From: an uncultured Actinomycetota bacterium
GTDB lineage: Bacteria > Actinomycetota > Thermoleophilia > RBG-16-64-13
Assembly: GCA_963843515.1 (NCBI GenBank)
Contig: CAWJKH010000004.1
Coordinates: forward strand, 35,867-99,866
DNA length: 64,000 nt
Direction of reading: 5' to 3'
Program-made: the position numbers and the translations under genes
The notes under the pieces: model-generated
Told to the model about the DNA's origin: nothing
Databases searched by the model: none
The model's input: the letters and a program-made list of their open reading frames with translations, nothing else
Part shown: positions 502-61,467 of the stretch, piece by piece
Layout: every line of letters begins with the position of its first letter
How positions within the stretch are numbered: the first letter of the stretch is position 1

Positions 502-719
502 CGTGGCCGTGGACTTGCCCGTGTTAGCGGCTGAGACCGCATCGAGCTCTACTTGTGTCGACGTCAACCGCAGGCCCCCTGGTCTTTGCTTACCTATTGA
601 CTACCGCCGGGTCGACTGCCGTCGGCCCGGTGGTACCCGGAGATTGGCATCGCCAAGCCTGCGTGCCAATCAGCAGCTCCGCCGGACATTCGATTCACGA
701 CATCCCGCGTGGTCCTCCC

Positions 720-815
720 CGTTTCTGTCCGTCTGCTGGCGACGCGTTTGCCAGATTCCCGGCTTTCTAAAGCGGAGAGGGGGGATTCGAACCCCCGGCA
801 CGGTTCGGACGGGGT
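720..815 (+). repeat. Truncated copy of interspersed tRNA-like repeat family (5' GTCTGCTG..GCGTTTGCC part fused to 3' GCGGAGAGGGGGGATTCGAACCCCCGG module)
   Basis: Matches the family consensus at both ends. The middle ~80 nt are missing. Confidence 0.5.
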
Positions 816-831
816 GCTTGGCCGCCTGGAC

Positions 832-1620: not shown

Positions 1621-1704
1621 TCTACCCGCAGTCAGGTGGTCTGAGGCAACGGCCGCGCCGTCGCAAGTCAGCGCATAGTTCCCCGAATCACGTGTCCGGC
1701 CAAA

Positions 1705-3219: not shown

Positions 3220-3519
3220 TGCGACCTCCAGGACGCCTGGGGCTGGGGCAATCTGACCTCTCGCTCGGAGAACCGAGGGTAGCACTGCTCCCAGGGTACA
3301 ACGAGTCTTCCGAGTGGACCGGCCTCTCGCTGGAACTACGGCCTGTCGGGTTGCGCGTGCGGCGCTCCGAGGCCATGAAGAAGGGCCGCTGGAGTGGCAA
3401 CCGGGAGCCATACCCACTCGAAACCCGTGCGTGTATCGAACTGACGGCGGGCGGGTACTCTCCGAGCGCCGTCGGACGGCAGCTCAAGCGTAGACCATCG
3501 CCGCACAGGGAGAAGTGCC

Positions 3520-3996
3520 ATGGCAGTCATGCAAGATCGGATCGTTCCGCACCTCTGGTATGACAAGGAAGCAAGAGAAGCAGCCGAGTTCTACTGCTCG
3601 GTGTTTCCAGATTCGAGCATCACGAACGTCACAACACTCCACGACACGCCGTCGGGAGATGCCGAGATGGTCTCCTTCGTGCTCGATGGCCGGCCCTTCA
3701 TGGCTATCAGCGCCGGACCCGTGTTCAGGTTCAACGAGTCCATCTCGTTCATCGTGTACTGCGAGAACCAAGAGGAGATCGATTACTATTGGGACAAGCT
3801 CTCCGCGGTTCCCGAGGCCGAGCAGTGCGGCTGGCTCAAGGACAAATATGGGCTCTCCTGGCAGGTCGTTCCCACCGCGATGAATACCATGATGCGGGAC
3901 ACGGACCCTGTGAGATTGGCCCGCGTGACCGAGGCGTTCCTCCAGATGAAGAAGTTCGATCTGGCCGCGCTTCAGAGGGCTTACGACGGGGAGTAG
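3520..3996 (+). CDS. VOC-family (PhnB-like / 3-demethylubiquinone-9 methyltransferase-like domain) protein
   Basis: 158 aa; MAVMQDRIVPHLWYDKEAREAAEFY... matches the PhnB-like glyoxalase fold family. GGGAGAAG lies upstream of the ATG. Confidence 0.8.
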   Translation: MAVMQDRIVPHLWYDKEAREAAEFYCSVFPDSSITNVTTLHDTPSGDAEMVSFVLDGRPFMAISAGPVFRFNESISFIVYCENQEEIDYYWDKLSAVPEAEQCGWLKDKYGLSWQVVPTAMNTMMRDTDPVRLARVTEAFLQMKKFDLAALQRAYDGE

Positions 3997-4164
3997 CCGC
4001 CCGCCGGAGCACATTGCCCGCATACTTTTCGAACGCGCTGCTTGAGGTCGAGTCCGACCGCCGCTTTCTCCCGCGGGTCCCCGGGGATGCACTCCCTGCT
4101 GATGACGGACCATATTCAGGTCGGCGGTGTGGTGCCAGTCTCATCTGACATCGATCCGTCAGTT

Positions 4165-4330
4165 CCGCTCCGTTTGCTGCTGCTGAGCTTGCCCCCGACT
4201 TGCCACCGAACTCGCCCCAAAGACGCGAAAACCCGGCTTTTGCGACCGGGCTCCGATCTGCCGTCCTCGGCTTTCGAAAGCGGAGAGGGGGGATTAGAAC
4301 CCCCGGTCCCGCTTGCGCGGCACAAGCGAG
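4165..4330 (+). repeat. Interspersed tRNA-like repeat family copy
   Basis: Carries TTGCCCCCGACTTGCCACCGAACTCGCC, the ACCCGG/CCGGG hairpin, and GCGGAGAGGGGGGATTAGAACCCCCGG. Confidence 0.7.
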
Positions 4331-4359
4331 ACGGAGGCCCGGCAGCCTTTCGGCCGCCT

Positions 4360-5043
4360 CTACGGCAGGAACTGCTCGTCGATGCTGACTACCAGCGGGC
4401 CGTCCCGCTCGATCCACCAGGGCATCCCGTGCAGGTGGGTGGCGTCGGCCGGGGCCGCAGCGCTCCAGAAGCTCTTGAACTGGGCCCAACTGACAGGGTG
4501 GTCCATTATCCCTTTCCAGGTGGACGTGGTGATGGGGACGGAGTTGGACACCTCGAAGACTCTCTTCTGCGGGTTATCGTTCTGGATCCAGTAGTCGTTC
4601 GGCACGTGGTCGCCCGGCTCTATCTCGCCGGCCGCAACGGCAGCCGCGTCCGCCTCCGCCCCGGTCAGCATCTCGGCATAGTCGATGCTGATGTAGCGCT
4701 TGCCGTCCTTGACGTATACCTTGTCGATGTAGCCCATGGCCTTGATGTGGCCGTTGGAGAGCCGGGTCTCGGCGCTGGAGAGCTTCTCAGTGGTCGTGGT
4801 GGTCCCCTCGAGGCCAGTCGTGGTGGTCTCTTCGAGCATCGACGTGGTGGTTGTGCTCTCGAATATCGCCCCGGTGGTGGTGGTCACCTCGACTGCGCCC
4901 GCGGTGGTCGTGGCCACCTCCGGGGCCGCGGCCGTAGTGTTGGTCGTGCTGTTTCCGCTGCCGCTGCAGCCGGCCACGACCAGCACCGCCGCAAGTAGTG
5001 CGGGGATAAGGACGGCGAGTGCGACGCGTCTCTTAGACTTCAC
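4360..5043 (-). CDS. Secreted lipoprotein with Thr-rich linker
   Basis: Signal peptide with lipobox LVVAGC and a TTTT-rich linker. GTG start with AGGAGGTGG upstream. Confidence 0.6.
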   Translation of the reverse strand: MKSKRRVALAVLIPALLAAVLVVAGCSGSGNSTTNTTAAAPEVATTTAGAVEVTTTTGAIFESTTTTSMLEETTTTGLEGTTTTTEKLSSAETRLSNGHIKAMGYIDKVYVKDGKRYISIDYAEMLTGAEADAAAVAAGEIEPGDHVPNDYWIQNDNPQKRVFEVSNSVPITTSTWKGIMDHPVSWAQFKSFWSAAAPADATHLHGMPWWIERDGPLVVSIDEQFLP

Positions 5044-5395
5044 CGGACCCCCACCTCCTCATTGGAGAGACTAGCGACATGAGAAGCCAGGCGCGGATGT
5101 GAACTAGTGCGAGACCCCTCTCCGGCCGCCCATCTGAGCTTTGAATGGAGGGAAATACTGCCCTCCCTATTAATCGACTATAGGCCGTTTGTGTCTTGCG
5201 TCAACAGGGGAAGTTGCGGCCTCGACCGGCAAGGGCTTCGCGGCAGCCGAACGGGGAACACTGGCTGCTGCTACCGCCAACTCCAAGCGTTGCGCGGCTG
5301 TGGTCATCGCCCCCCGCTCACCCTTGGCGTGATTGGCGCGTCGACGGGCGTGGCGTGAGGGGGGAACTCTCTTCACGTTGATATACTGCTGTCCA

Positions 5396-8290
5396 ATGGA
5401 TAACGACACGCCCCGCAGTTTGCGCGAGCAGCAACCGCGGCTGCACGGGCGTAGCCACGCCTCTCGTTTCCGAACGATTGCCCTCGTTGTGGCGATCGCG
5501 GTCGTCGCCATCATCGCGCTCACGATTTTCATGCGCTACTACGTCGACTGGCTCTGGTTCGGCGAGGTGGCCCTGCGCACAGTCTTCTGGAGGCGGATCG
5601 TCACCGGTCTCATCGTCGGGGTTGTCTTTGCGGTCGTCTTCTTCGCCATCGTGTATGGCAATGTGGAGATCGCTCGCCGGTTAGCCCTCAAATACCACCC
5701 TGTAGACGGCGTTGACATCGTGGAGCCGGTGAACGAGCAGGCGGTTCGGCGGCTCCGGCAGGTGGGGCTGGCGCTCTCAATCGTGATTGGCGTGGCCGTC
5801 GGCTTTTCTACCGCTGGTTCGTGGCTGACGTTCTCCCAGGCTTTCAACGCCGTCCCCTTTGGGATCGACGATCCTATCTTCCATCACGACCTGTCGTTCT
5901 ACGTCTTTGTCGTGCCGGCCTGGCAGTATGTCTACTCGGTCCTGTTCGCCGCGCTGATCGTCGCTCTGGTAGTGACGGTCGCCGCGCATTTCGTGCTCGG
6001 CGGCGTGCAGGTGGAACAGCGCGCCCTGACTGAGTCCAAAGCGGCAGCGCAGGAGCAGGACGCGTTGAAGATGGCCCGTAGCGCGGTGCGAGCGGCCGGC
6101 GTGCACGTCGATCGCCGGACCGTGGCCCACGTCTCCGGGCTCCTTGGGGCGCTGTTCATCCTGGCTGGGGCGGGCTACCTGCTCAAGGCCTGGAACCTCC
6201 TCTATTCCACCTCCGGCGCGGTCTTCGGCGCCGGCTACACCGACGTTCACGTTCGCCTGCCGCTCATCCGCTTCCTGATGGTGGTGGCTTTCCTGCTCGG
6301 CGGAGCGCTCATCTACAACGCCGTGCGGGGCCGGCGCCGCCTCTGGCCGCCTCTGGCTATCGGCGTGTGGATAGTCGCCCTCATCGTCTTCCTGGCCATC
6401 GTGCCGGCGGCATGGCAGGCGCTCAGCGTGAATCCGAACCAACTCACGAAGGAAACCCCTTACATCGCCAACAACATTGCCGCCACCCGCTCGGCCTACG
6501 ACCTGACGGCGATCAGCGAGACCCCCTACTCACTACAGGGTGATCTCACCGCCGCTCAGCTACTCGTGAACAAGGTGACGATAGGCAACGTGCGTCTCTG
6601 GGATCCGGAGATACTGCTCACGAGCTATGGCCAGCTGCAAGAACTCCGGCCGTACTACTCCTTCGGGAGCGTCAGCGTCGATAGATACCTTGTTAACGGC
6701 ACCTACACCCAGACCATGCTCGCTCCGCGCGAGCTACGGGTCGCCGGCCTGCCGGCCCAGGCCCAGACCTGGGTGAACCAGCACATCACCTATACCCACG
6801 GCTACGGGGTGACCGTGTCGGCGGTGAACCAGGTGGCCTCCGGCGGTTCGCCGGACTTCCTCGTGCAAGATGTCCCGCTGGTGTCTTCGACGCCGGCTCT
6901 TGCCGTGACCGAGCCTCGCATCTACTACGGACGCGCCGGCGCCGACTACCTCTTGGTCAAGACCAAGGACCAGGAGTTCGACTACCCGGGCCCCAACGGC
7001 GACGTCTACACCAGCTACACCGGCAACGGCGGCATCCCCGTGGGTTCGTTCCTGAACAAGCTCGCGTTCATGATGCGTTTCGGCAGTCTCAAGTTCTTCA
7101 CAGCGTCGTCGATCACCGCTGACAGCCGGGTGATCATCAAGAACAGTATCGGCGACCGCCTGATCGCGGCCGCGCCGTTCCTCAAGTTCGATGGCAACCC
7201 CTACATGGTGATAGCCGACGGCAAGCTCTACTGGATCGCCGACGCCTACACCACGACCAGCCGCTACCCCTACTCGCAGCCGGACGGTGCGCTCAACTAC
7301 ATCCGTAATTCCGTGAAGGTGGTCATCGACGCCTACAACGGCACGATGAGCTTCTACGTGTTTGACCCGAGTGATCCGCTCATCCAGACCTACGAGAAGA
7401 TCTTTCCCGGCATGTTCAAGGCGGAGGCCGAGATGCCGACCGCCCTCAGCCAGCACGTGCGCTACCCCGAGGACCTGTTCATGACGCAGGCCCGGATGTT
7501 CGCCACCTATCACGTGACCGATCCCGCCGTGCTCTACAGCAAGGGAAACCAGTGGGAGATACCCAGCAACGTGTCGATCTCCGAGGGAGCTCCGATGAGT
7601 CCCTATTACATGATCATGCGGCTGCCGGGCCAGACCCACGAGGAGTTCGTCCTCATTCTGCCCTACGTGCCCAACGATCGAAGCAATATGATCGCCTGGC
7701 TCGGAGCCCAGTCTGACCCCCCGGAGTACGGCAAGGCGGTGAGCTTCGAGTTTCCCTCCAGCCTTAACGTCTACGGCCCGGCCCAAGTCGAGGCCGCCAT
7801 CAACCAGGACCCGGCGATCTCGGCCCAGCGCACCCTCTGGGGTCAGCAGGGTTCCACCGTGGTCTTCGGCAACCTGCTCACGGTGCCGATCGGCAACTCG
7901 CTGCTCTACGTGCAGCCGCTCTACCTGCAGTCCTTGCAAACGCAGTTGCCGCAGATCCAGCGCATCATCGTCTTCTACCGATCGCCGTCGGCGACCCCCA
8001 ACCTGCCCTCCGGCCAACAGCAGAACGTGGTGATGGCGCCGACTCTCGGTGAGGCGCTCACGGCGATCTTCGGCGGCGCCGGAGCTCAGCCCGGAGGGGG
8101 AACCACGCCGCCGCCCACCACCGGAGGGACGAGCGCTGCCGTGGCCCAACTGATCGCCCAAGCCGCTGCCAAATACGCGGACGCCCAGGCGGCGCTGCGC
8201 GCGGGCGACCTGGCCACTTTCGCACAGGATATCCAGGAGCTGGGCACCATACTCACGCAGCTTCAGGCTGCGTCGGGGACGGGCGGCTAG
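5396..8290 (+). CDS. UPF0182-family large membrane protein
   Basis: About 960 aa with an N-terminal polytopic membrane region, a large extracytoplasmic domain and a Gly/Thr-rich C-terminus. This architecture matches actinobacterial UPF0182 (COG1615). The start was chosen at the internal ATG (MDNDT); the ORF track starts at 5333. Confidence 0.6.
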   Translation: MDNDTPRSLREQQPRLHGRSHASRFRTIALVVAIAVVAIIALTIFMRYYVDWLWFGEVALRTVFWRRIVTGLIVGVVFAVVFFAIVYGNVEIARRLALKYHPVDGVDIVEPVNEQAVRRLRQVGLALSIVIGVAVGFSTAGSWLTFSQAFNAVPFGIDDPIFHHDLSFYVFVVPAWQYVYSVLFAALIVALVVTVAAHFVLGGVQVEQRALTESKAAAQEQDALKMARSAVRAAGVHVDRRTVAHVSGLLGALFILAGAGYLLKAWNLLYSTSGAVFGAGYTDVHVRLPLIRFLMVVAFLLGGALIYNAVRGRRRLWPPLAIGVWIVALIVFLAIVPAAWQALSVNPNQLTKETPYIANNIAATRSAYDLTAISETPYSLQGDLTAAQLLVNKVTIGNVRLWDPEILLTSYGQLQELRPYYSFGSVSVDRYLVNGTYTQTMLAPRELRVAGLPAQAQTWVNQHITYTHGYGVTVSAVNQVASGGSPDFLVQDVPLVSSTPALAVTEPRIYYGRAGADYLLVKTKDQEFDYPGPNGDVYTSYTGNGGIPVGSFLNKLAFMMRFGSLKFFTASSITADSRVIIKNSIGDRLIAAAPFLKFDGNPYMVIADGKLYWIADAYTTTSRYPYSQPDGALNYIRNSVKVVIDAYNGTMSFYVFDPSDPLIQTYEKIFPGMFKAEAEMPTALSQHVRYPEDLFMTQARMFATYHVTDPAVLYSKGNQWEIPSNVSISEGAPMSPYYMIMRLPGQTHEEFVLILPYVPNDRSNMIAWLGAQSDPPEYGKAVSFEFPSSLNVYGPAQVEAAINQDPAISAQRTLWGQQGSTVVFGNLLTVPIGNSLLYVQPLYLQSLQTQLPQIQRIIVFYRSPSATPNLPSGQQQNVVMAPTLGEALTAIFGGAGAQPGGGTTPPPTTGGTSAAVAQLIAQAAAKYADAQAALRAGDLATFAQDIQELGTILTQLQAASGTGG

Positions 8291-46338: not shown

Positions 46339-47790
46339 GTGGCGCATGTCTGGGGAAAGGACCACCCCGTGGGTACGATCGTCTACCCGAGCCGATACAA
46401 CCATCTCGTCCGGATAGCCACCTCAAACCGAGACTCCGTTCCCGTTGTGTGCAATCTGTTGTTCGGCGCTGCTGACGTCACCAACGAGGAGGTCTATCAG
46501 CTGTTTTGGCGAGGGGCGGAGACTGGAGTCATCGATACCGAGGGTCTGACACCAGAGACTCTTGCTCATTTCGTGGACCATGGCTTCCTTTGGTATGAAG
46601 CGTCCGCAGAGGAGGAGGTGGTAGCCAAGCTCGGCGCTTCCTTCGGCGGAAGGGACGAGATCGCAGCTGGCCTTGGCGGGGGGCATTACGGATTCATCAC
46701 CTCACTCGACTGCAACCTTGCTTGCCCGTACTGTTTCCAGCGGGAGAGGGCTGACTCTGTCGGCTTCCTGACTAGCCGGCAGGTCGACCTAGCAATAGAG
46801 GCAATACGAGAGTGCGAGGCTCGCGTGGAGGCTCTGGCTGGGAAGCCTACGCTGCCCAAGATCTCGATCACGGGGGGCGAACCCCTTCTCCAGAACGGAC
46901 TCAGTGTCGAGGTGCTCGACTATCTGATGCTTCGGCTGGACGAGTTGGGGTGGCCCTTCAGCCTCACTACCAATGGGACAGAGCTTGGGCGGTTTGTGGA
47001 CCGGCATGATGTGACGCCACGTTGCCGTAACATCCAAGTCACACTCGATGGGCCCAGGAACATCCACGACCTCCGACGATGCTTCCGAGGCGGCCAGCCC
47101 TCCTTTGATAGGATCGTTGCTGGCATGGATAGCGCCCTTGCCGCTGGCTGGAATATCACACTCCGGGTGAACTTGGATCTGTCGAATGTGGCGCACCTTC
47201 CCGAGTTGGGGTTCTTCATCCGTGATGAGAAACAGTGGGCACGGAATTCCAAGTTCTCAGCCTACGTCTCTCCGGTTACGGACCACGGGCCTCTTGAGTG
47301 CGATGTGGGCGCGTCCGACGAGGCTGACCTGCTCAAAGAGCTGCTAGGGGTAGTAGACGGCGCACCCTGGCTCCGCGATGTGTTCGATATCCGGCACTTC
47401 CGAGGCTTCAACTATGTGGAGCAAATGCTTGTCGGCCAGACCCCTCGGTTCCCAGTAATTACCAGGTGCGAGGCAATCTCAGGGATGTACATCTTCGACC
47501 CAGGGGGGAATATCTACGTTTGCTTGGAGTCCGTTGGTGAGCCCTTGCGGCGGGTCGGGCGATACGATCCCAGGTTAGAGATCGACCATGCGCTGGCAAC
47601 GCGTTGGTCGGACCGCCAAGTCCTCAAGATCCCCGAGTGTGGGGAGTGCAAGATCCGCTTCGTATGCGCGGGTGGGTGCGCCATCGAAGCCTCCAACAAA
47701 GGGCGAGATGCGGCGTGCATGCCGTTCTTGGAGGAAATGGAGACAGCCTGGGATTACTTCGGCCGCACCAGGCCCGATCTGATCCCCTAG
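46339..47790 (+). CDS. Radical SAM / SPASM-domain peptide maturase with N-terminal RRE-like region
   Basis: CNLACPYC (Cx3Cx2C) and a C-terminal CGECKIRFVCAGGC SPASM motif. About 110 aa precede the rSAM core. GTG start. Confidence 0.8.
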   Translation: MAHVWGKDHPVGTIVYPSRYNHLVRIATSNRDSVPVVCNLLFGAADVTNEEVYQLFWRGAETGVIDTEGLTPETLAHFVDHGFLWYEASAEEEVVAKLGASFGGRDEIAAGLGGGHYGFITSLDCNLACPYCFQRERADSVGFLTSRQVDLAIEAIRECEARVEALAGKPTLPKISITGGEPLLQNGLSVEVLDYLMLRLDELGWPFSLTTNGTELGRFVDRHDVTPRCRNIQVTLDGPRNIHDLRRCFRGGQPSFDRIVAGMDSALAAGWNITLRVNLDLSNVAHLPELGFFIRDEKQWARNSKFSAYVSPVTDHGPLECDVGASDEADLLKELLGVVDGAPWLRDVFDIRHFRGFNYVEQMLVGQTPRFPVITRCEAISGMYIFDPGGNIYVCLESVGEPLRRVGRYDPRLEIDHALATRWSDRQVLKIPECGECKIRFVCAGGCAIEASNKGRDAACMPFLEEMETAWDYFGRTRPDLIP

Positions 47791-48349: not shown

Positions 48350-50084
48350 TGTCAAGTCCCAGTACCCGCTTTACACTCTGGCTCCGGTTCCTTCTTTACA
48401 GTCAATTCGGCCCCGATCGGGAATGTCGATTTCTCTAGGAGGCTTTGAGCTTCCTCGGTCTGCCTTTGCGAACGCCGAAGGCGCCGTGCTCCTTCTCCTT
48501 GTCGTGCCGAGCGGGATGGGTGCGGATGAGCTTGCCCCCGGCCCAGATCTGGACCGTGTCTCCCGCCAGGCGCACCTCCACCTGCTTGCCGGCGAAAGCC
48601 GTGCCCACCCGATAGGCGGTGCCGGCGAAGCTCAGGTCACCCCGGGAGTCCACTTGGCGAAGGACGGCTGGGTGAGCCAGCTGCGACCTGACTCCCGTCC
48701 CGTGCTGCCGCCTTCTGAGCGCCGGCTCTTCCGCCTCCTCCCGGTGCTTGCGGGCAAGCGTGGCCACGAGCACGTCGTGGTGGAAGATGTTGACCAGGCC
48801 GTCAGGGCCGAACTCGATCTCCACCGTTTTCCCACCTAGGAACCGGCCCACGGTATAGTCAGCCCCCGCCAGGCGCAGGCGCCCGTTCTCGCTCACCTTG
48901 CGGATGGCTCGAGGACCATGAGGCGGGAGGTGGTCCGCCTGTTCCCACTCGGGAGCTTCCTCGGGAAGGAGCGGCCAGAGCCCCTCGGAAGCCGCAGCGG
49001 CGAAGCGATCATGGGGTGAGGCCATACCGATGCCCTGGTGGGGCCGCTCGGTGTTATAGAAGGCCACCCAGGCGTCCAGTTCGGTCTGGGCTTCCTCGAG
49101 CGAGGCGAAGACCCTCCCCGCTAAGAACTCCTTCCGGACGGTCTTGTGGAAGCGCTCCACCTTGCCGGTCGTCGTCGGGGAGCGGGGAGCGGTGAGCAGA
49201 TGCCGGATGCCGTTCTCCCGACAGATGCGGTCGAAGAGCACCTCACCGCGGCTGGGACCGAAGCGGCTCGTGAACACCTTGCCGTTGTCGGTGAGGATCT
49301 GGTCGGGGACGCCATAGCGGCGAAGAGCGAGAGCGAGAGCTTCGCATACCGGCCGGGCCGTGGCCCGGGGCACACAAAGCGCCGAGACGCAGAAGCGGGA
49401 GTGATCATCCAATCCGGTGATGATCTTGAGCTCGGAGCCGTCTTCAAGCTTCACCCCGCCCATGATGTCCATCTGCCAGAGCTCCATGGACCTGCTCCTT
49501 TCCCAGCGCTTATAGTGCTCCCGGCGCCTTCGCCTTTTCGTGGGGTCGATGAGTCCGTGGCGGACGAGACAGCGATAGATGGAGGAACGCCCCGGCAGAG
49601 GTTCCACCCCAGCTCGGGCCAGCTCATGACGGATAGTGCGCGGGCCCCATAAGGGGTGAGTCCGGCGGAGCCCAAGCACCTGGGCTATCACTTCGGGTGG
49701 CATCTGGTGGGGGCAGGATGCTGGCCGGCAGGGGTGGTCCAGAAGACCGGCGATGCCTGATGCTGCATAGCGCCGGAGCCAGGTGTGCACCGTCTGACGG
49801 GTCACCCCATAGCGACGAGCCACGTCGGTGATCGGGGTGCCGCCCATGACCTCGAGGACCGCTTTGTGCCGTTGTTCCACCAGTCCCAGCTTGACGAGCA
49901 TGGTGTCGACCTCCCTCGATACGAGCCATTTCTGACCGTATCGGAGGGATTGGGACCGGAGGCAAAGAGAAGGCAAGTGTCAAATAGGTACCGGAGCCAG
50001 TGTCGCCCAGGTACCGGAGCCGCGTCCTGAAACTGTCAAGCACCTACCGGAGCCAATGTGTCAAGTATCTACCGGGACAACACA
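48350..50084 (-). mobile_element. IS481-family insertion sequence
   Basis: Both termini begin TGT (TGTCAAGTCCC / TGTGTTGTCCC). It is flanked by a 14-bp direct repeat GTCTGCTGCTGACG. The transposase-proximal end carries three copies of an ~25-bp motif (TGTCAA[AG]...TACCGGAGCC). Confidence 0.7.
48435..49901 (-). CDS. IS481 family transposase (DDE, rve core)
   Basis: N-terminal HTH, ITGLDDHSRF...LTDNG...YNTERPHQG. Start at MLVKLG. Confidence 0.8.
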   Translation of the reverse strand: MLVKLGLVEQRHKAVLEVMGGTPITDVARRYGVTRQTVHTWLRRYAASGIAGLLDHPCRPASCPHQMPPEVIAQVLGLRRTHPLWGPRTIRHELARAGVEPLPGRSSIYRCLVRHGLIDPTKRRRRREHYKRWERSRSMELWQMDIMGGVKLEDGSELKIITGLDDHSRFCVSALCVPRATARPVCEALALALRRYGVPDQILTDNGKVFTSRFGPSRGEVLFDRICRENGIRHLLTAPRSPTTTGKVERFHKTVRKEFLAGRVFASLEEAQTELDAWVAFYNTERPHQGIGMASPHDRFAAAASEGLWPLLPEEAPEWEQADHLPPHGPRAIRKVSENGRLRLAGADYTVGRFLGGKTVEIEFGPDGLVNIFHHDVLVATLARKHREEAEEPALRRRQHGTGVRSQLAHPAVLRQVDSRGDLSFAGTAYRVGTAFAGKQVEVRLAGDTVQIWAGGKLIRTHPARHDKEKEHGAFGVRKGRPRKLKAS

Positions 50085-50245
<161 letters not shown>

Positions 50246-50439
50246 TCGAGACCGCCGCATTAAGCCAGCTCTGCCACCTCTCCAAAGCGCAACCGGGATT
50301 GTAGCGGATAGACCGCGCTGGCGCGCCTCGGATGGGGCCGAGCCCCTGTGTGGGACTCGCCCCTCTCGTCTGGGCCCATGCGCGGAAGAGTGGCCCAGCT
50401 CATAGGGCAGCTCGGCCACGTTCCGCCTGCCGCGGCGTC

Positions 50440-51232
50440 TCAGTCGCTATCGGGGGGCCTGGCTCGGGGCGGGTCGTAGCAGATCGCGTCGTCGCTCCAG
50501 TACGCCTGCCTGCAGTAGTGGCTGTAGAGTTCGGTCTCGTACTCTCTCGTGACGGGAGCGTCCACGTCGTAGGCCGGCGCGCCCTTGATGGCCTCCCGGG
50601 TCATTTCCACCGACAGGGTGAAGTGCTCCCAGTCCACTGTCGTCCACTGCGGGGGCAGTAGGACGTGCTTGCTCGAGAACCAACCCCGAGTGTCGATCAC
50701 CAGATAGCGGATGGCCCAGTCCTCAGCCGAGAGCAGGAGGTCGGTGATGCGGCCGACCTCGCCGTCTGTGGCGGTAACCGAATATCCGCCGAAACCGGCG
50801 ACGTCCTTGGCGCTGTAAAGGTTGCTGTCCCAGGACGCTCTCTCCTCGAGCGACACGGCGGCCTCGGGCGGCAGCGGCGCGGTCAGCGTCCCCCAGGCGA
50901 AGGGCCCCACCCAGTAGGGCGAATAGCCGTAGTATTCGTTGTAGGCGATCTCGAACTGGCGCGAGACAGGGGGATGCTCGTCCGGGGCAGGACTGCGCTC
51001 CATCTGCGCTTTGGTCAAGATGCTCTCGATCGTCTTGGTGTCTCGGTCGACGCCGGAGAGCGCACGAGGAGACACCAGCATTCGCTTCTGCACCAGCCAG
51101 CCGCCGGTGTCCACCACGAGATACCGGACCGTCCAGAAACGGTCGTCGAAGTAGAGGTCCTCGATCGTACCGGTCTTGCCGTCACGTGAGTGGAATGCGT
51201 ATCCCCGTAGCTCCTCGGCTTTGTACAGCATG
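50440..51232 (-). CDS. Tandem PRC-barrel domain protein
   Basis: Two repeats of the G..G.I.DL..D....IRYLV.D..GW pattern. Confidence 0.6.
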
Positions 51233-51361
51233 GCTCGTTCCTCTCTCCGCGGTGCCCGCGCGGGCGGGGTTGGGAAAGCCGGGCCGGCTTCCAAGGCAGG
51301 CATACCCGGGGCAGGGAGGACACAAACGAAAGACGGGGAGGGAAGGCTCGGCCGAGTCCAG

Positions 51362-52111
51362 CTAGCCCCGCACGAGCCGCCGGAGCGCGTCCCGGGCTGC
51401 CCGGCGCACGCGATCGTCGGGGTCCGCGGCCAGGATGTGCAGCGCGTCGATCGCCTGCCCGGCGAGGTCGGCGATACGGCCTATGAGCTCCAGACGCGCC
51501 CGGCTGGAGAGTGCGGGAGCCTCGCGCAGCACGAGGACCGAGGCCGCCTCCGAGGCCTCCCTGGCGGCCCGCAGCACTCGCTCGGTGGCGGGGTCGATCT
51601 CGGAACCCTCTTCGACCGGCGGCACCGGACGGCGCGGGCCTCGCGCTTGGAGCGCTGCCCGGATGTCCATCTCTTCGAACAACCCGTACGTGCGGGGCCG
51701 GGCCTGCGACCGCGAGCGCGGCGAGACGCGCAGGTCCTCGACGGCGCCGACCCCTCCGGCCGCTCCGGCCTCTCCGATTTCACCACTCCCTCCGACTTCG
51801 TCATAGTCCGGGGCGAACAGTCCCAGGTCCACGGGCTCTCGCGACAGATGCTCGGCGGCCCGACTGGTGCTCTCCTCGCCGTAGCGATTCACCATGCGGT
51901 TGGCGATGGTCTCGCTCATGAGGTAGTCGACGGGCAAATCGAAGTGCCGGGCGAGAGCCTCAACCGACTCGGGGGAGGGAAGTCTTTCCCCGCGCTCGAT
52001 GCGGGACAGCATCGCCACGGACAGCCCAGTGGCGTCCGAGACCTGCTCGAGAGTCTCGTCCCGGCTGTGCCGCAGCTTCCTGAGAATGTATCCGAAGTTG
52101 ACCCTGGCCAT
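51362..52111 (-). CDS. XRE-family HTH transcriptional regulator with C-terminal HEAT-like helical domain
   Basis: LRKLRHSRDETLEQVSDATGLSVAMLSRIERGERLPS is an HTH_XRE motif. The C-terminus carries a DPDDRVRRAARDAL HEAT/PBS-type repeat. Confidence 0.65.
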   Translation of the reverse strand: MARVNFGYILRKLRHSRDETLEQVSDATGLSVAMLSRIERGERLPSPESVEALARHFDLPVDYLMSETIANRMVNRYGEESTSRAAEHLSREPVDLGLFAPDYDEVGGSGEIGEAGAAGGVGAVEDLRVSPRSRSQARPRTYGLFEEMDIRAALQARGPRRPVPPVEEGSEIDPATERVLRAAREASEAASVLVLREAPALSSRARLELIGRIADLAGQAIDALHILAADPDDRVRRAARDALRRLVRG

Positions 52112-52149
52112 CGTCGTTCCTCCGGCGTCCATTCTACACCATTGTCAAT

Positions 52150-52235
52150 GTACTTGACAGAGTTGGCAATGCTGATATGATGCTATTTGACACATATGGC
52201 AAAGCCTTTGCCTTTCCTGTCCACTGCGGGGAGTA
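52150..52235 (+). promoter_or_regulatory. AT-rich divergent promoter/operator region
   Basis: TTGACA-16nt-TATGAT, a second TTTGACA, and a perfect palindrome GGCAAAGCCTTTGCC. Confidence 0.4.
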
Positions 52236-52270
52236 GAGTCGGGGGAGGGCTGAACAAAAGGGGGTTCGAG

Positions 52271-53056
52271 ATGGACGAGCAGATCAAGGAGCAGGAAGAC
52301 AGGACCATCCTCATCAACTTCGTGCTGGACAAGTCGGGGTCTATGGAGGTCATCCGCGAGGCGACCATCGCCGGGTTCAACCAGTTCCTCCGTGATCAGC
52401 GGGAAGAGGGCGGGTCCGCGTTCATGACCCTCACCCTGTTCGACACGAGGTTTCAGACCGTGACACAGGCGATCCCCCTGGCGGAGGTGCAACCGCTCGA
52501 CCGCCGGAGCTACGTTCCCGGCGGCACGACCGCCCTCTACGACGCCATCGCCCACACCATGACCGTCACCGACCAGTACGTGGCCGCGAACAATCCCGAC
52601 CAGGTGCTGTTCGTGATCATGACCGATGGGCAGGAGAACTCCAGTCGCGGATTCGATCGGCAGCAGATCATGGAGCTGATCGAAGAGCGGCAGCGCACTG
52701 CTGACTACGAGTTCGTCTACCTGGGCGCCAACCAGGACGCCTACGCCGCGGGTGACGGCATCGGCATCCGTGGCGGCCGGACGCTGGACTACTCCGCGTC
52801 ACCCGCGGCGACCCGCGCGACCATGGAGAAGCTGTCGTGGAACGTCAAGGCTCATCGCCGGCTGGGGGAGAAGAAGCTCGCCAGCCACGAGTTCTTCTCT
52901 GACGCCTTCGAAGGCCTGGGCAAGGACTCCTGGGACGAGCACAAGACCAAGCGGGACCAAGCGGCCGACGAGCAGCCCGCGGCGGGTGCGGCCGAGGGCG
53001 CGGCTCCCGATCGTGAGTCGGCGCCCGCCGCGGCACCCGACGGGCGGGAGGTGTAG
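52271..53056 (+). CDS. von Willebrand factor A (vWA) domain protein
   Basis: MIDAS motif DKSGSM...T...D. About 260 aa with an acidic tail. Confidence 0.7.
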   Translation: MDEQIKEQEDRTILINFVLDKSGSMEVIREATIAGFNQFLRDQREEGGSAFMTLTLFDTRFQTVTQAIPLAEVQPLDRRSYVPGGTTALYDAIAHTMTVTDQYVAANNPDQVLFVIMTDGQENSSRGFDRQQIMELIEERQRTADYEFVYLGANQDAYAAGDGIGIRGGRTLDYSASPAATRATMEKLSWNVKAHRRLGEKKLASHEFFSDAFEGLGKDSWDEHKTKRDQAADEQPAAGAAEGAAPDRESAPAAAPDGREV

Positions 53057-53058
53057 GC

Positions 53059-54063
53059 ATGAGCAGCGCGATTCCCACGCTGGTGGAGCGGCTCCGGCTC
53101 GGGGATCCGGTGACCGACGGAGGGCTGACCATGGTCCCCGTGTTCGGCCGGTTCGACAAGGTGCCTCCGGTCGTGACCATGGAGGAGGCCATTGCTTCCC
53201 GCATCCTCGAGGTCACCGAGGTCTCCGAAGGCGGAGCTGTACCGTCTCTGCGCGCCCGTAACACCGGGAGCATCGGCATCCTCATCCTGGACGGGGAGGA
53301 GTTGGCCGGCGCCAAGCAGAACCGGGTGCTGAACACCTCGGTGTTCATCAAGCCCGGGCAGGAGATCATCATCCCGGTCAGCTGCACTGAGGCCGGGCGA
53401 TGGAGCTACCGCACCACCACGTTCGACGACTCCGGCCATGTGGCCGCCCCAGCCATCCGGCTGGCGGCGGCTCGGTCGGTCACCGCGAACGTGCGACGTG
53501 GCGGCGCCTATCACTCCGACCAGGACGCAGTATGGAAGGAAGTCTCCTCTCTTCAGGAACGGCACAGACTGGTGTCGCCCACGTCGGCGGCCCGGGATGT
53601 GTACGAAGGTCGCAAGTCCGACATGGAGCGCCGTGAGGCGGCCTTCGCGTGCCTACCCGAGCAGACTGGCCTGGTGGCTCTGTGGTCCGGCCGCGTCGCC
53701 GGGATGGATGTGATCGCGAGCGACCGGGCGTACGCCAGATTGCACGGCCGGCTGGTGCGGTCATATGCACTGGATGCGCCCATCGGCACTCCCTCGTCGG
53801 TGGAGCATGATCGACATGCCGCTCAGGAGTGGGTAGCTGCACTGGCCAGGGTGCAGGCCACCGAGCACGAGTCGCCTGGGAACGGGATCAGCTATCGGTT
53901 CACGGGGAACGGCGTGGTCGGGTCGGCACTGGCGGTCGATGGGGCGGTGCTCCACGCAGTGGCGTTCGCGACGCCGGGCGGCCGGACTGAACCGGACGGG
54001 TCTGACTCGCGCGCAAGCCGGTACCCGGGGTTCTTCGAACGGCGGGCGCAGTTCCCCTGGTAG
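53059..54063 (+). CDS. Hypothetical protein translationally coupled to vWA gene
   Basis: The ATG lies 2 nt after the vWA stop. 334 aa with no recognisable motif. Confidence 0.5.
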   Translation: MSSAIPTLVERLRLGDPVTDGGLTMVPVFGRFDKVPPVVTMEEAIASRILEVTEVSEGGAVPSLRARNTGSIGILILDGEELAGAKQNRVLNTSVFIKPGQEIIIPVSCTEAGRWSYRTTTFDDSGHVAAPAIRLAAARSVTANVRRGGAYHSDQDAVWKEVSSLQERHRLVSPTSAARDVYEGRKSDMERREAAFACLPEQTGLVALWSGRVAGMDVIASDRAYARLHGRLVRSYALDAPIGTPSSVEHDRHAAQEWVAALARVQATEHESPGNGISYRFTGNGVVGSALAVDGAVLHAVAFATPGGRTEPDGSDSRASRYPGFFERRAQFPW

Positions 54064-54136: not shown

Positions 54137-54900
54137 TTACTCCAGCAGCAGCCGGTCCACCGCCAGTGTCTCTCCACTGGCTTCGTGGAACTTGCGGACC
54201 AGGGAGCCCACCGTCAGGGTCTCTTTATCGGTGCCGCTGACGTCAAGAATGATCTTGCCGGCGTGCATCATGATGAGGCGGTTGCCCCACTGCAGGGCGA
54301 TCTCCATATTGTGCGTGACCATGACGGTGGTCAGGTTGCGTTGCCGGACGATCTTGCCGGTGAGGTCCATGATCGTGGCGGCCACCTTGGGATCGAGCGC
54401 GGCGGTGTGTTCGTCCAGGAGCAGCAGCCGGGGCTCGGCCACGGTGGCCATGAGCAAGGACACTGCCTGGCGCTGACCCCCGGACAGCTTGTTCACCTGG
54501 GTCGGTGAGCCGGGTCTCCAGGCCCATGCAGAGCTCGGCCAAGGCCTCTTTCATCTGCCTCTTGAGCCGGGCCGGCACGCCGGGCCGCAGGCCGCGCCGG
54601 CGGCCCCGCAGGTAGGCCATGGCCATGTTTTCCTGGATGGACATCGAAGGCGCCGTCCCTGCCCGGGGGTCCTGGAACACCCGGCCGATCGATCGCGCGC
54701 CTCGCAGGTACTCGGCGAGGTGGGTGATGTCCTCGTCCGTCCGAGCGCAGATGGTGCCCGCGGTGAGCAGGGATGCGTGCCGGCGATGACGTTCAGGAGG
54801 GTCGACTTGCCCGAGCCGTTGGAGCCGATCACGGTGACGAAGTCGCCGGGCTCCACCTGAAGGTTGATGTCGTTCAGGGCCACGACCTCGTTGACCGTGC
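54137..54900 (-). pseudogene. ABC transporter ATP-binding protein (COG1101-like), multiply frameshifted
   Basis: Walker A GSNGSGKSTL, Q-loop/FQDP region and LSGGQRQ-LLLDE lie in three different frames. Confidence 0.6.
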
Positions 54901-54957
54901 GCGGGAAGAAGACCTTCCTGCAGGTCCTGTGACAGCGGTCAGCCCGGCCGGAGTCGC

Positions 54958-55817
54958 TCACATCCTTATCACTTTCCGTCTGCACGGTGGGCAGCGACAG
55001 CGCCACGACCACCAGGAGGGCGGTGAAGCAGCTTGAGGTCGGTCGGGAGCGATCCCCAGCCTCAGGCTGATCGAGATGAGCAGCCGGAACACGATCGAGC
55101 CGCCGATGACGCTGAAGAGGACCCAACTGATGCTTCTGGTCCCGAACAGCACCTCGCCGATGATGACGCCGGCCAGGCCGGCCACGATCGTGCCGATGCC
55201 CATGCCCACGTCGGCGAACCCTTGGTACTGGGCGACCAGCGAGCCGCTCAGCGCGACGAGGGCGTTCGCCAGACCAAGTCCGAGCACCCGCACCAGGTTC
55301 GTGTTGACCCCGAGCGAACGGAGCATCTGCTCGTTGTCGCCGGTGGCCTGCATGGCCAGGCCCAGCTCGGTGTGAAGGAACCAGTCGAGAACGTATTTGA
55401 TGATGAGCATGAGTACGGCAAGCATGCAGGATGAGCCACCAGCCGGTCATGTGCACCGCCGAACCAGCTGCCGATCTGGTCGAAGACGTTGTCCTTGCCC
55501 AGGAGCGGGACGTTGCTGCCTCCCATGATGCGCAGGTTGATGGTGTAGAGCGCCGGTCATCACCAGGATGCCCGCGAGCAGCTTGGGTCCGTAGTTGGTG
55601 GAATCCCGTCACCGACTTTGAGGAGCAGGTGGAGACCACCGGTCACGAGTCCGGCGAGCAGGCCCGCTGCGGTCCCGGCGATGGTCGGCCAGCCAGGGAG
55701 AATGGCCTCCGCGGTGATGATGGCGGCCGTCACCGCCGCCCCCAGGGGGAGGCTCCCGTCCACGGTCAGGTCGGGGAAGTCGAGGACCCGGAAGGTCATG
55801 AAGACCCCGAGGACCAT
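54958..55817 (-). pseudogene. ABC transporter permease (COG4120-like), frameshifted
   Basis: The N-terminal FRVLDFPDLTVDGS segment and the C-terminal TM segments are in different frames, and the middle is unreadable. Confidence 0.55.
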
Positions 55818-56074
55818 GAAGCCGTAGAGAAGGCCTTGCTCGCAGGGCCTGGTGATAGTACGGTCTCCACTGGTTCCTTACCTCACGCCCGTCACGCCGC
55901 CGCGGACGGCGAGCGCCGTCTCGTGACGCCGACAATGCGACGATGGCGGGGCCTGAAGGCCCCGCCATCGAATGCGATCGGATCACGTGATCGCTCACGC
56001 CGGTTCACACGTCGCTCGGGACTTCGGCGCTAGAAGGTCTGTATCGGCCTTGGCTTTGAGATCGTCGGGGATGG

Positions 56075-57126
56075 TCACGCCCATGCGCGGTGGCGGCGGC
56101 CATGTTGATGGCCAACTGGAGGTTCTGGGCGTACTCGACCGGGATCTGCGCGATCGGGGTGCCCTTGAGCACCTGCGCGGCCACCATGTCCGGCCTGCAT
56201 GCCGTGATCTTTGTAGTCGAACGCGTAGGCGGCGACGGCTCCGCGCTTGACGCTGTCGGTGTCACCGGCGATCAGGGGGATCTTGTTGTCTTGGCAGACC
56301 TTGACCACGCTCTCCAGCGCGGAGACGACGGTGTTGTCGGTGAGCACCGAGATCGCGTCGACCCTGCCCACCAGGGACTGGGCGGCCGCAAGCACTTCTG
56401 CCGAGCTCGCGGCCGTGGCTTCGACGACCTTGAGGCCCATGGCCTCGGCAGCCGCTTTCTCTTTCTCGACCAGCGACACCGAGTTCGTCTCGCCCGCGTT
56501 GTAGAGCAGGCCGATGGTCTTGACGTTGGGCACCAGCTCTTGATGAGGTCGAGGTGCGGCTGGACCGGCAGCATGTCGGAGACGCCGGTGACGTTGGCCT
56601 CAGGGGCGTCCGGGTTCTTCACCAGGCCGGCCGCCACCGGATCGGTGACCGCGGCGAAGACGATGGGGATGGTCGTGGTGGCCTTGACAGCGGCCTGGCT
56701 GGTGGGCGTGGCCACCGAGAGGATCAGGTCGACTTTGTCGCCCACGAACTTCTGGGCGATGGTGGTGGCGTTGGCCATGTCGCCCTGAGCGTTCTGCTTG
56801 TCGTAGGTGACGTTCTTGCCCTCGACGAAGCCCGCTGCGGCGAGGGCGTCGATGAAGCCCTCGACGGTCGCGTCGAGCGCAGGGTGGCTGACGATCTGGG
56901 TGATGCCGACCTTGTAGGTCTTGCCGGCGGTGGTCTCCGTAGAGGCAGCGGTGGTCTCAGATGACGGTGCCGCGGTGGTCTCGGTCGAGGGCGCCGCTGT
57001 CGTCTCCGTGGATGGAGCCGCAGTGGTCGTCGTGGTGGAGCTGCCGCACCCCGCCGCAAAGACGGCGAAGAGGGCGACTGCCACGACGAGCCCGAGAACG
57101 ATCAGTGTCTTTGCCTTCACTTGCAT
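56075..57126 (-). pseudogene. ABC transporter substrate-binding lipoprotein (COG2984/BMP-like), frameshifted
   Basis: Lipobox FAAGCGSS, a Thr-rich linker and an SBP fold in one frame up to ..DLIKS, continuing in another frame (..MPNVKTIGLLYNAGE..) and then breaking again. Confidence 0.55.
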
Positions 57127-57336
57127 TGCTACCCCCCAGGTAGTCGGTTGATGAGGCATTGTATGCGGTCCTTCCGCGGGTTGGCAAGTTGGGGCGCCCT
57201 CCTGCCGCCCAATGGGCCGAAGGTTGCAGTGGTGCTCCCGGGGTCAGCCGCTAGCATGGCGGCGATGAGGTTGCGCGAGGACCGCCATGTACGATAGATT
57301 GAAACCATTATGAAACCATAATGGTTGGAGAGGACT

Positions 57337-57585
57337 GTGCCCACCACGCTCACCCTGAAGAACATCCCTGATGAAGTCTACGAACGGCTCAAGGCCTCCG
57401 CTGCGGCGCACCGGCGGAGCCTGAACAGCGAAGCCATCGTGTGCCTCGAGAGCGCCCTTCAGCCGGTGAAAAGAATAAGTGCGGAAGAACGCATTGCTCG
57501 GGCGCGTGTCCTACGATCGACGCTGCGCCGAGGTGATCTGACCGCTGAGGAGATAACCGCATTCAAGAACGAGGGGCACCCGTGA
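57337..57585 (+). CDS. vapB: VapB-type antitoxin (FitA/Arc-like RHH)
   Basis: GTG preceded by GGAGAGG. LTLKNIPDEVYERLKASAAAHRRSLNSE pattern. Overlaps the vapC start by 4 nt (ATGA). An upstream palindrome AACCATTATG..CATAATGGTT is present. Confidence 0.65.
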   Translation: MPTTLTLKNIPDEVYERLKASAAAHRRSLNSEAIVCLESALQPVKRISAEERIARARVLRSTLRRGDLTAEEITAFKNEGHP

Positions 57586-57974
57586 TCGTCGTCGATGCCA
57601 ACATTCTGGCATATCTCTACCTGGGGGGCGGTCACGGTCTCGCAGTCGAGGCGCTCTTGAAAGAAGACGAGGAGTGGGCGGCGCCAAGCCTCTGGCGAAG
57701 CGAGATGAGGAACACCTTGGCCGGCTGCCTTAGGCGCGGAGATCTCGGGCCGGCGGAAGCTCTGAGCATCCAGTCCGAAGCCGAGAACCTGATGGGGGGG
57801 GCCGAGTACGAGGTGAGCTCAGGCGCCGTACTCGAATTGGTGGCGATCAGCGACTGCACCGCCTACGATTGCGAGTATGTCGCGGTCGCGATCGGATTGG
57901 GGGTCAGATTGGTGACGATGGATGCCGCGGTGTTGAAGGCGTTCCCGGATGTCGCCGTCCCGCTCGTCGGCTGA
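57582..57974 (+). CDS. vapC: PIN-domain ribonuclease toxin VapC
   Basis: MIVVDANIL... with PIN acidic residues. 130 aa. Confidence 0.7.
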   Translation: MIVVDANILAYLYLGGGHGLAVEALLKEDEEWAAPSLWRSEMRNTLAGCLRRGDLGPAEALSIQSEAENLMGGAEYEVSSGAVLELVAISDCTAYDCEYVAVAIGLGVRLVTMDAAVLKAFPDVAVPLVG

Positions 57975-61321: not shown

Positions 61322-61467
61322 GCCCCCTCCGTTCCCGGCGCCCTGACGGCGCGCTCTCTCTTCTGCAACAAGCATAGCGCGGGGTCCGGACAGGAAATCT
61401 TCCGCACCTCGTTACTTTGCCTCGCGCCAATCGTTTGTTAAAATAGATATAATTTTTAAATGGAAAT

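Follow-up and report, generated by a model that had tools for sequence, protein, structure and literature searches.

We analysed a 64,000-nucleotide stretch of DNA (hereafter the window) from an uncultured Actinomycetota bacterium, which contains a compact locus of three genes. One encodes an XRE-family regulator, and two, divergently oriented from it and closely spaced, encode a small von Willebrand factor A (vWA) protein and a member of the ARPP-1 family (hereafter ARPP). The coordinates of these genes, which we refer to as the trio, and of the candidate control elements between them are given in Table 1. An initial annotation of this DNA had already recognised the divergent XRE gene, a small vWA protein with a metal ion-dependent adhesion site (MIDAS), its stop codon 2 nt from the next ATG, two TTGACA boxes and a perfect palindrome. 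All of these were recovered in our analysis, and the two boxes, at 52154 and 52187, each proved to lie inside a candidate operator copy. Several of its other statements required revision.

Table 1. Genes and candidate control elements of the XRE-vWA-ARPP locus, in order of window position
Feature	Position	Strand	Basis or remark
XRE-family regulator gene	51362..52132	-	HTH_3 match; alignment of 20 orthologues
Putative XRE promoter (CTGTCA, 18 nt, TAGAAT)	52131..52160	-	predicted by consensus scan
P1, sigma70-like promoter of the vWA operon (TTGACA, 16 nt, TATGAT)	52154..52181	+	11/12 matches; TG before the -10
Candidate operator O1, TTGACAGAGTTGGCAA (TTGACA-N4-TGGCAA)	52154..52169	+	exact; overlaps the -35 of P1 and of the XRE promoter
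Candidate operator O2, TTGACACATATGGCAA	52187..52202	+	exact; just downstream of the P1 -10; kept in relatives
Perfect palindrome, GGCAAAGCCTTTGCC	52198-52212		junction of O2 and inverted O3
Candidate operator O3, inverted, TGGACAGGAAAGGCAA on the - strand	52208..52223	-	2 mismatches; overlaps the -26-type element of P2
Candidate promoter P2 (TGTCCA, 10 nt, TAGAGT)	52218..52239	+	layout of PafBC/RecA-NDp promoters, tGTCgg(N10)tA(N3)T
Gene for small cytoplasmic vWA protein, 261 aa, complete MIDAS, phrog_7371 member	52271..53056	+	alignment, fold and PHROG match
Gene for ARPP-1 family protein, 334 aa	53059..54063	+	full-length PF20208 match

The regulator carries a helix-turn-helix (HTH) of the XRE/Cro-CI type (HTH_3, E=6e-12, 45.8 bits against a gathering score of 23). 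Three modules are kept across 20 aligned orthologues: the N-terminal HTH, the motif YGxFxEMDIxAAL within a low-complexity linker, and a C-terminal helical segment with DPDxRVRxAAxxAL at its end, the last of which is absent in the orthologues L012 and L014. This C-terminus had been described as HEAT-like. It gave one HEAT repeat match below the cut-off (E=0.025, 15.2 bits; cut-off 23.5) and no tandem series of significant repeats, and thus HEAT-like may stand as a fair, loose description of the segment with its conserved motif, but not as a demonstrated domain. Neither Pfam profiles nor the HEAT scan revealed a recognisable ligand-binding domain in the regulator. Its true start is probably Met 8, at 52111, since this residue is kept in the 20 orthologues and preceded by GGAGGA, and since the first ATG of the open reading frame (ORF) overlaps a conserved -10-like TAGAAT. 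A PuhA-like protein with two PRC barrels (50440-51303, - strand) adjoins the XRE gene, and its gene is kept upstream of the trio in several relatives (L011, L014, L093).

For the vWA gene, the most likely start is the ATG at 52271 and not the TTG at 52187 chosen by the ORF finder, because an identical database protein (P0121) has 261 residues, the N-termini of relatives align there, and the candidate promoters lie upstream. The MIDAS residues, D20-x-S22-x-S24, T87 and D119, are invariant in 42 homologues. The AlphaFold2 (AF2) model (pLDDT 89.4) has 326 PDB matches at E<=1e-3 in Foldseek, and the top matches, with probability 1.00, include ITIH1, integrin I domains, the anthrax-receptor vWA and TRAP, which identifies a vWA (Rossmann-like) fold. 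Both relevant Pfam profiles fell short of their gathering scores (VWA_CoxE, 21.4 bits, cut-off 26.4; VWA, 17.9 bits, cut-off 23.8) and a profile search of PDB sequences returned no match; membership in the vWA superfamily therefore rests on the fold and the MIDAS. The protein has 804 close clusters and matches phrog_7371, a family of unknown function, over its full length (E=1.8e-54). On the phage side, relatives were found in 219 phage records and on 487 IMG/VR contigs, and they are 36-48% identical to the window protein. Such small MIDAS-bearing members of phrog_7371 are widespread in phages of Streptomyces (Samistivirus and relatives), Microbacterium and Pseudomonas (Otagovirus VCM) and in jumbo phages, where their genes sit among replication and nucleotide-metabolism genes or beside terminase and HNH genes. 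MSMEG_5511 ('von Willebrand factor'), a possible homologue of the window vWA, is 1.6-fold lower in an M. smegmatis pafBC mutant.

The product of the second operon gene, initially taken to have no recognisable domain, turned out to be a full-length ARPP-1 protein. Its residues 12-303 align with positions 2-297 of the 297 in the PF20208 profile (E=2.2e-86, 290.3 bits, cut-off 27). Residues invariant in an alignment of 65 ARPP sequences include E80, E81, Q87, N88, R89, N92, C109, E111, R114, W115, Q155, Q202 and H299. The absolutely conserved Cys and Gln of the family are thus present, as C109 in PVSCTExGRW and Q87 in DGEELxGAKQNRVLN. The AF2 model is confident (pLDDT 91.5), but the fold is unmatched: no solved relative was found by sequence search, and the best Foldseek hit had only E=0.06 and TM<=0.17. 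In size the family exceeds 1,840 clusters (90% identity), and one scan placed it in at least 568 species; 50,697 phage genomes contained no member, and plasmids hardly any. NCBIfam returned nothing for either vWA or ARPP, and a literature search for ARPP-1, PF20208 and DUF6569 found only the paper that describes the family (Iyer, Burroughs, Anantharaman and Aravind 2022, Viruses 14:1977; PMC9503650). According to that study, ARPP-1 is an accessory part of ADP-ribosylglycohydrolase (ARG)-centred systems, which also use vWA 'chaperones', and it occurs in two-gene neighbourhoods with HIRAN, WYL regulators or a deacetylase. It was proposed to act enzymatically on ribose or other sugar moieties via the invariant cysteine (PMC9503650).

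How firmly the three genes belong together was assessed on 80 species-level ARPP loci, searched with the three window proteins. All nine loci with an ARPP at least 63% identical to that of the window (uncultured Actinomycetota/Gaiellales metagenome-assembled genomes, MAGs) contain the full trio in the same arrangement, and so do the metagenomic contigs L093-L095, L098, L116 and L117. The intergenic control region is conserved as well, in agreement with the initial proposal of a dedicated, self-contained regulated unit. In the window, the vWA stop codon (TAG, 53054-53056) is followed by GC and the ARPP start codon at 53059; in relatives the gap is 2 nt or replaced by an overlap. ARPP is predicted to be translationally coupled to the vWA gene, and it is the only gene found downstream of vWA that is placed in this way.

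The remaining 71 of the 80 ARPP loci have neither a vWA gene nor an adjacent XRE gene, which, by the standard that the initial annotation had itself set, refutes the idea that the ARPP is one half of an obligatory vWA pair. Distant ARPP genes stand solo or adjoin WYL regulators. Among their 102 immediate neighbours, WYL, WCX and HTH_11 are the commonest (13 loci) and HTH_3 with an M78 peptidase occurs at 4 loci; vWA was not among them, and single-locus look-ups agree. From the side of the vWA the picture is different. At 55-63% identity, in Coriobacteriia and other actinobacterial MAGs, the divergent XRE gene is kept and the downstream gene is another one or absent; among the alternatives are an unknown protein of 138 aa with a TIR-WD40 gene behind it, NTP_transf_8, RecQ, a rhodanese, and convergent Fic or lipoprotein genes. 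An XRE gene, as judged by HTH profile, is present in every assessable locus of the vWA clade (vWA at least 50% identical) except L118, and none was found near vWA relatives of at most 49% identity, many of which are viral. The conserved core is therefore the XRE/vWA pair and not vWA/ARPP: ARPP is one of several downstream genes and is coupled to the pair in one sublineage. We rejected vWA-ARPP as the ancestral pair, as most members of the vWA clade lack ARPP. In the Coriobacteriia/Actinobacteria MAGs of L087-L092, the XRE/vWA pairs have no ARPP, and their surroundings resemble defence islands (a TIR-WD40 protein of 1,035 aa, SLFN-like helicase, PhdYefM plus GNAT toxin, ORF6N, DUF6036), and an NTP_transf_8 gene is found downstream of vWA in L089/L090 and upstream of it in L091/L092.

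Gene order after ARPP is the same in relatives that are only 63-72% identical, namely PIN, CoA-transferase III, cation efflux, TadA-like deaminase, two small membrane proteins and MarR-MFS; the proteins of this region share 63-85% identity. The trio is therefore vertically inherited at a fixed chromosomal site. It is not a mobile island, and the accessory or island context initially suggested for it is contradicted.

We next consider the 140-bp spacer between the XRE and vWA genes. O1 and O2 form a direct repeat 33 bp apart, and no further exact copies of TTGACA-N4-TGGCAA exist in the window. The 16-nt operator pattern has 8 matches in all against 2.3 expected, 5 of them inside the spacer, where three promoter-like sites were also found against 0.2 expected. 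The layout is maintained in relatives. Operator positions are kept across about 20 loci; the block GTGTAGAATG at the XRE promoter, within which the TAGAAT mentioned above lies, is kept in nearly all orthologous loci and is also conserved when read on the + strand as CATTCTACAC; and the P1 -10 (TATAGT, TATGAT or TATACT) has not changed position. O1 is conserved in group-A loci, as is O3 in the form TTGCCA-N4-TGTCAG or TTGCCT-TTCC-TGTCC. The palindrome takes the form GGCAA-N5-7-TTGCC in relatives, with conserved arms and a variable centre. A second XRE subgroup, whose HTH is 33-44% identical, has a different operator, as expected if the operator co-evolves with the regulator. Such an arrangement is typical of repressors that control divergent promoters and, with them, their own gene. 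There is good support for the inference that XRE represses P1 and its own gene, and equally for O3 allowing it to block P2.

P2 is of a different kind. Downstream of O2 in 20 diverged leaders, the sole invariant columns are TGTC and the A and last T of the -10, with the hexamer 12 nt after TGTC. The motif occurs in 28 of 34 non-redundant loci of the XRE-linked vWA clade, in 1 of 38 distant vWA loci and in none of 61 viral vWA loci. Actinobacterial PafBC is switched on by single-stranded DNA after DNA damage, and WYL-WCX-HTH is the architecture of PafB and PafC. The promoters of this response follow the consensus tGTCgg(N10)tA(N3)T, in which GTC is strictly conserved and the -10 is canonical but the -35 is absent (PMC8635444). 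RNA polymerase reads these RecA-NDp promoters by 'sigma adaptation' after PafBC has been activated by damage (PMC8635444, PMC8223512), and the motif has been reported beyond mycobacteria (PMC8223512). The candidate promoter P2 has this layout (conserved GTC, canonical -10, no -35).

The motif is retained in the XRE subgroup that has the other operator. Moreover, an exact second copy of TTCCTGTCC-N11-A-N3-T (TTCCTGTCCGGACCCCGCGCTATGCT) is located at 61371-61396 (- strand) in the window, about 9 kb from the trio and without operators. Since the motif persists both with another operator and at an operator-free promoter, it is best assigned to a global factor and not to XRE. The genes behind the second copy, also on the - strand, encode a 74-aa membrane protein, a PLDc_N-like small protein, a TadA-like deaminase and a cation-efflux protein. 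The same motif is found at the same place in L007, L008, L009, L011 and L015, so that a regulon is visible within 9 kb. Two other accounts of the conserved leader were rejected. TGTC does overlap O3 in group-A loci, yet a mere XRE half-site would not explain its persistence with the other operator, at solo ARPP genes and at the operator-free second promoter. As for an RNA element, the neighbouring tRNA-Ser was the sole Rfam match, the 20 leaders yielded no base pairs in RNAalifold, and the conservation pattern is that of a promoter.

This motif is also found before ARPP genes without a vWA partner. It occurs in 15 of 70 distant ARPP upstream regions against about 2 expected; because the loci are related, the nominal P (1e-9) overstates the significance. 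Motifs of the TGTCAGACC type are placed 54 to 65 nt before the start codon of ARPP genes without vWA in the high-GC loci L003/L016, L024, L048, L255 and L256, several of them from Actinomycetota MAGs; the one in L256, 54 nt before the start codon, reads TGTCAGACC-N9-CATACT. In other phyla, TGTCA-N11-TAnnnT is present at eight ARPP loci, six of them beside a WYL regulator, and four share CTGCTGTCAC-N10-TATACT. This promoter-like sequence precedes ARPP by about 90-215 nt in L022, L043 and L055 (Deltaproteobacteria-like MAGs), with an adjacent WYL regulator in L022 and L043. Between it and ARPP, all three loci contain an ORF of about 55 aa rich in CxxC pairs (e.g. MGNRTGKDPGDGICCDWCKIAEALGTFFVPGKGILNLCGRCRLLLMAV...), which may encode an unannotated Zn-ribbon partner. 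Overall, ARPP appears to be driven by WYL/PafBC-type promoters across contexts, and the inference that P2 needs a WYL-family activator has good support.

Given the gene identities and folds, the synteny, and the fact that the trio, the XRE/vWA pair, the operators and the promoter motifs are all conserved, we propose that the locus may be a chromosomally fixed, doubly controlled stress operon, in which local XRE repression is combined with WYL/PafBC-type activation of genes for a vWA adaptor and an ARPP enzyme. We consider the chances of this proposal to be about even. In such an operon, XRE would bind the three copies of TTGACA-N4-TGGCAA and keep both the vWA-ARPP operon and its own gene off. 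On O1 it would cover the -35 boxes of the XRE promoter and of P1, on O2 the start region of P1, and on the inverted O3 the upstream element of P2. Transcription from P2 would require PafBC or another activator of the WYL family, so that expression would probably need relief of XRE repression and a global damage signal together. Because their stop and start codons are 2 nt apart, vWA and ARPP would be made in fixed proportion. The vWA protein would serve as a metal-dependent adaptor or chaperone whose MIDAS grips an acidic residue of a partner. ARPP is predicted to be an enzyme, with its invariant Cys, Gln and His, for a ribose or other sugar substrate, as the describers of the family suggested, which might be an abasic sugar or an adduct of ADP-ribose. 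The assignment of proteins to binding sites, the nature of the inducing signal, the pairing of vWA with ARPP and the chemistry are the steps that we infer, some of them only weakly: the signal might be DNA damage, single-stranded DNA or phage infection; the MIDAS might hold ARPP, a target protein or the acidic motif of the XRE linker; and ARPP might process a sugar adduct through C109.

Several observations weigh against this proposal. The loose P2 pattern occurs at chance frequency in the single 64-kb window (8 against 6.7 expected), and the P2 argument therefore rests on conservation; a 22-nt motif as degenerate as this one can mislead. Part of that conservation could stem from XRE, given that TGTC is half of O3 in group-A loci. 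The element in the window's own subclade is TGTCC, not the TGTCA/G-G typical of RecA-NDp, and no pafBC or other WYL gene is found within the 64-kb window. Behind the second copy of the motif, the genes for small membrane proteins and a TadA-like deaminase have no evident role in repair. Finally, ARPP has no solved or characterised relative, and its chemistry is conjecture.

A bolder extension of the proposal is that ARPP-1 proteins, in one actinobacterial lineage together with a phage-related MIDAS vWA, belong, unnoticed so far, to DNA-damage regulons of the WYL/PafBC type across phyla. In that case ARPP would act in a cysteine-dependent, SRAP/HMCES-like manner on damaged or ADP-ribosylated DNA sugars, vWA would deliver it, and XRE would be a second lock placed over the activator's -26 element. 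We regard this extension as speculative and more probably wrong than right. If the link between ARPP and WYL/PafBC were true, it would supply new effectors for the RecA-independent damage response of Actinobacteria and would, for the first time, place ARPP and the small vWA proteins common in phages in a physiological setting. Should it fail, the locus would still illustrate cleanly how an XRE protein controls an operon of two genes whose function is unknown. In either case, for a widespread family such as ARPP-1 the locus offers an experimental handle: a compact operon, a clear repressor, three operator candidates, and a promoter motif that links ARPP, whether vWA is present or not, to damage- or phage-responsive activators of the WYL/PafBC class.

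Other readings of the locus were weighed against the doubly controlled operon. The initial annotation had likened it to mobile stress, defence or toxin-like modules, in which XRE would silence a self-contained effector pair until phage attack or stress. XRE-controlled cassettes are indeed common in defence islands, and in PADLOC v2 the generic HTH of the regulator resembles the CapH and RmrA HTH models; that HTH alone was matched, however, with 0 families for vWA and ARPP. The vWA family is abundant in phages, whereas ARPP, as noted above, is missing from phage genomes and almost so from plasmids. There are also suggestive neighbours. In Coriobacteriia-like MAGs, the genes around XRE/vWA pairs include TIR-WD40, a SLFN-like helicase, PhdYefM-GNAT, Fic and ORF6N; a PDDEXK_7/DUF2357 gene and a calcineurin-like phosphoesterase gene flank the ARPP homologue of L256; and in the window a ribbon-helix-helix (RHH)-PIN pair and an insertion sequence (IS) are nearby. 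The trio itself contains no nuclease, pore, NADase, toxin-like or other effector domain that we could find, it occupies the same syntenic site in diverged relatives, and most ARPP genes have neither partner. Taken together, these data make a mobile defence or toxin-like module unlikely.

A pared-down ARG-centred system is conceivable too, one that would reverse virus-imposed ADP-ribosylation, with vWA binding the modified protein and ARPP processing the ADP-ribose. Both proteins are listed components of ARG systems, vWA as a peptide-binding chaperone; these systems are likewise under a negative one-component regulator, and calcineurin-like phosphoesterases follow one vWA relative (L126) and one ARPP relative (L256). 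We nevertheless judge this reading improbable, since 6-8 kb of the window and of its relatives contain neither the ARG domain that defines such systems nor the coupled phosphatase nor the Nudix/WYL sensor regulator, and XRE has no recognisable ligand-binding domain. The divergent repressor, the multiple operators and the overlapping back-to-back promoters also recall a classical immunity region, which raises the question of a domesticated prophage remnant: a CI-like repressor divergent from an early phage gene (vWA), with ARPP captured later and the TGTC promoter providing damage-linked induction as for prophages. XRE matches phage repressor PHROGs, vWA has hundreds of phage relatives, and the gene downstream of it varies. 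Yet the phage vWA proteins are only 36-48% identical, the TGTC promoter is found at none of the 61 viral loci, no distant metagenomic vWA locus has an XRE gene, and in the window clade the pair has no further phage genes beside it. Moreover, the roughly 55-60% vWA identity between distant clade members, including those of Coriobacteriia MAGs, argues for a selected host function. A prophage origin of this kind is thus very unlikely in our estimation.

The surroundings of the trio include features specific to the window. An ABC uptake operon (54137-57159, - strand; ABC_sub_bind, BPD_transp_2 permease and ATPase) is frameshifted into at least 5 ORFs: two ORFs share its substrate-binding protein (profile positions 1-130 and 128-243), and permease and ATPase exist only in pieces. 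The initial annotation was right that this operon is fragmented, but the fragments cannot be taken as a sign of an island in view of the synteny. They may be either pseudogenes of a decaying insertion or a product of long-read or assembly indel errors. Relatives have no ABC operon between ARPP and the RHH-PIN pair, which in the window consists of a FitA-like RHH antitoxin and a PIN toxin overlapping by 4 nt (57325-57974, + strand). This pair is directly downstream of ARPP in L008, L010, L012, L014 and L015, and another precedes the solo ARPP gene in L003/L016. On the other side, an intact IS481/Mu-like transposase gene (48435-49976, - strand; rve, Mu-transpos_C_2) adjoins tRNA-Ser(CGA) (50193-50283, - strand), and neither is at that position in syntenic relatives. 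A 483-aa radical SAM protein encoded upstream of the IS element (46339-47790, + strand) is unrelated to the trio. Outside the window, the ARPP homologue of L256 (JGI Ga0528792_000802, 1-5764), 54% identical, has on one side a DUF2357/PDDEXK_7 (McrC-like) gene, whose partner is 1,135 aa long, and on the other a calcineurin-like phosphoesterase gene.

Parts of the locus have known counterparts, namely the ARPP-1 family, the vWA fold and the uncharacterised, phage-rich phrog_7371; as a whole, judging from its gene content, we consider it to be neither a vWA-MoxR system nor an ARG-centred system nor any catalogued defence system. With vWA-MoxR and vWA 'ternary' conflict systems it shares a MIDAS-bearing vWA in a small operon. 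The initial annotation had drawn the ternary comparison while pointing out that the MoxR ATPase was missing. The latter is correct: no AAA+ ATPase was found within 6-8 kb in L001, L002 or the scanned window ORFs. The comparison itself fails, as the AAA+ MoxR ATPase is missing within that distance in the window and its relatives alike, there is no third conserved partner, and the vWA is a small, stand-alone, phrog_7371/YegL-like protein. The small vWA of phages matches that of the window over its full length, with the same size and the same MIDAS, but differs in its modest sequence identity and in the lack of XRE and the TGTC promoter. ARG-centred systems (Iyer et al. 2022, section 3.8) resemble the trio in that a repressor governs them and that ARPP and a vWA 'chaperone' are among their accessory parts. 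They differ in that near the trio we found neither an ADP-ribosylglycohydrolase, nor a phosphatase of the rhodanese, calcineurin-like or HD type, nor a Nudix/WYL sensor. Among genes within 6-8 kb, an ADP-ribosylglycohydrolase is absent near the trio and was seen only 5 kb from a distant ARPP in L005; the window clade has neither the coupled phosphatase nor a Nudix- or WYL-HTH regulator, the regulator there being XRE.

On the control side, the closest parallel is with PafBC/RecA-NDp promoters. P2 has TGTC at about -26, a canonical -10 hexamer 10 nt after the upstream element and no -35, and an activator-type promoter is combined with a repressor operator, much as in dual-control genes such as recA, which has RecA-NDp plus an SOS box. 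The differences are a dedicated XRE in place of LexA, TGTCC in the window subclade, and products, vWA and ARPP, that are not recognised repair proteins. Finally, the window protein agrees with the two-gene ARPP-WYL context in being a full-length ARPP with the invariant Cys and Gln, and WYL-WCX-HTH is the commonest ARPP neighbour in our sample. The window locus departs from that context in that its regulator is XRE, vWA is coupled upstream, and WYL-type input is present only as a promoter motif. Published two-gene contexts of ARPP are those with HIRAN, WYL and a deacetylase, and the vWA-ARPP pair is not among them. Neither a putatively XRE-gated vWA-ARPP operon with a candidate PafBC-type promoter nor a recurrent TGTC-N12-TAnnnT motif before ARPP genes is among the ARPP contexts reported by Iyer et al. 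2022, the only paper that our literature search returned.

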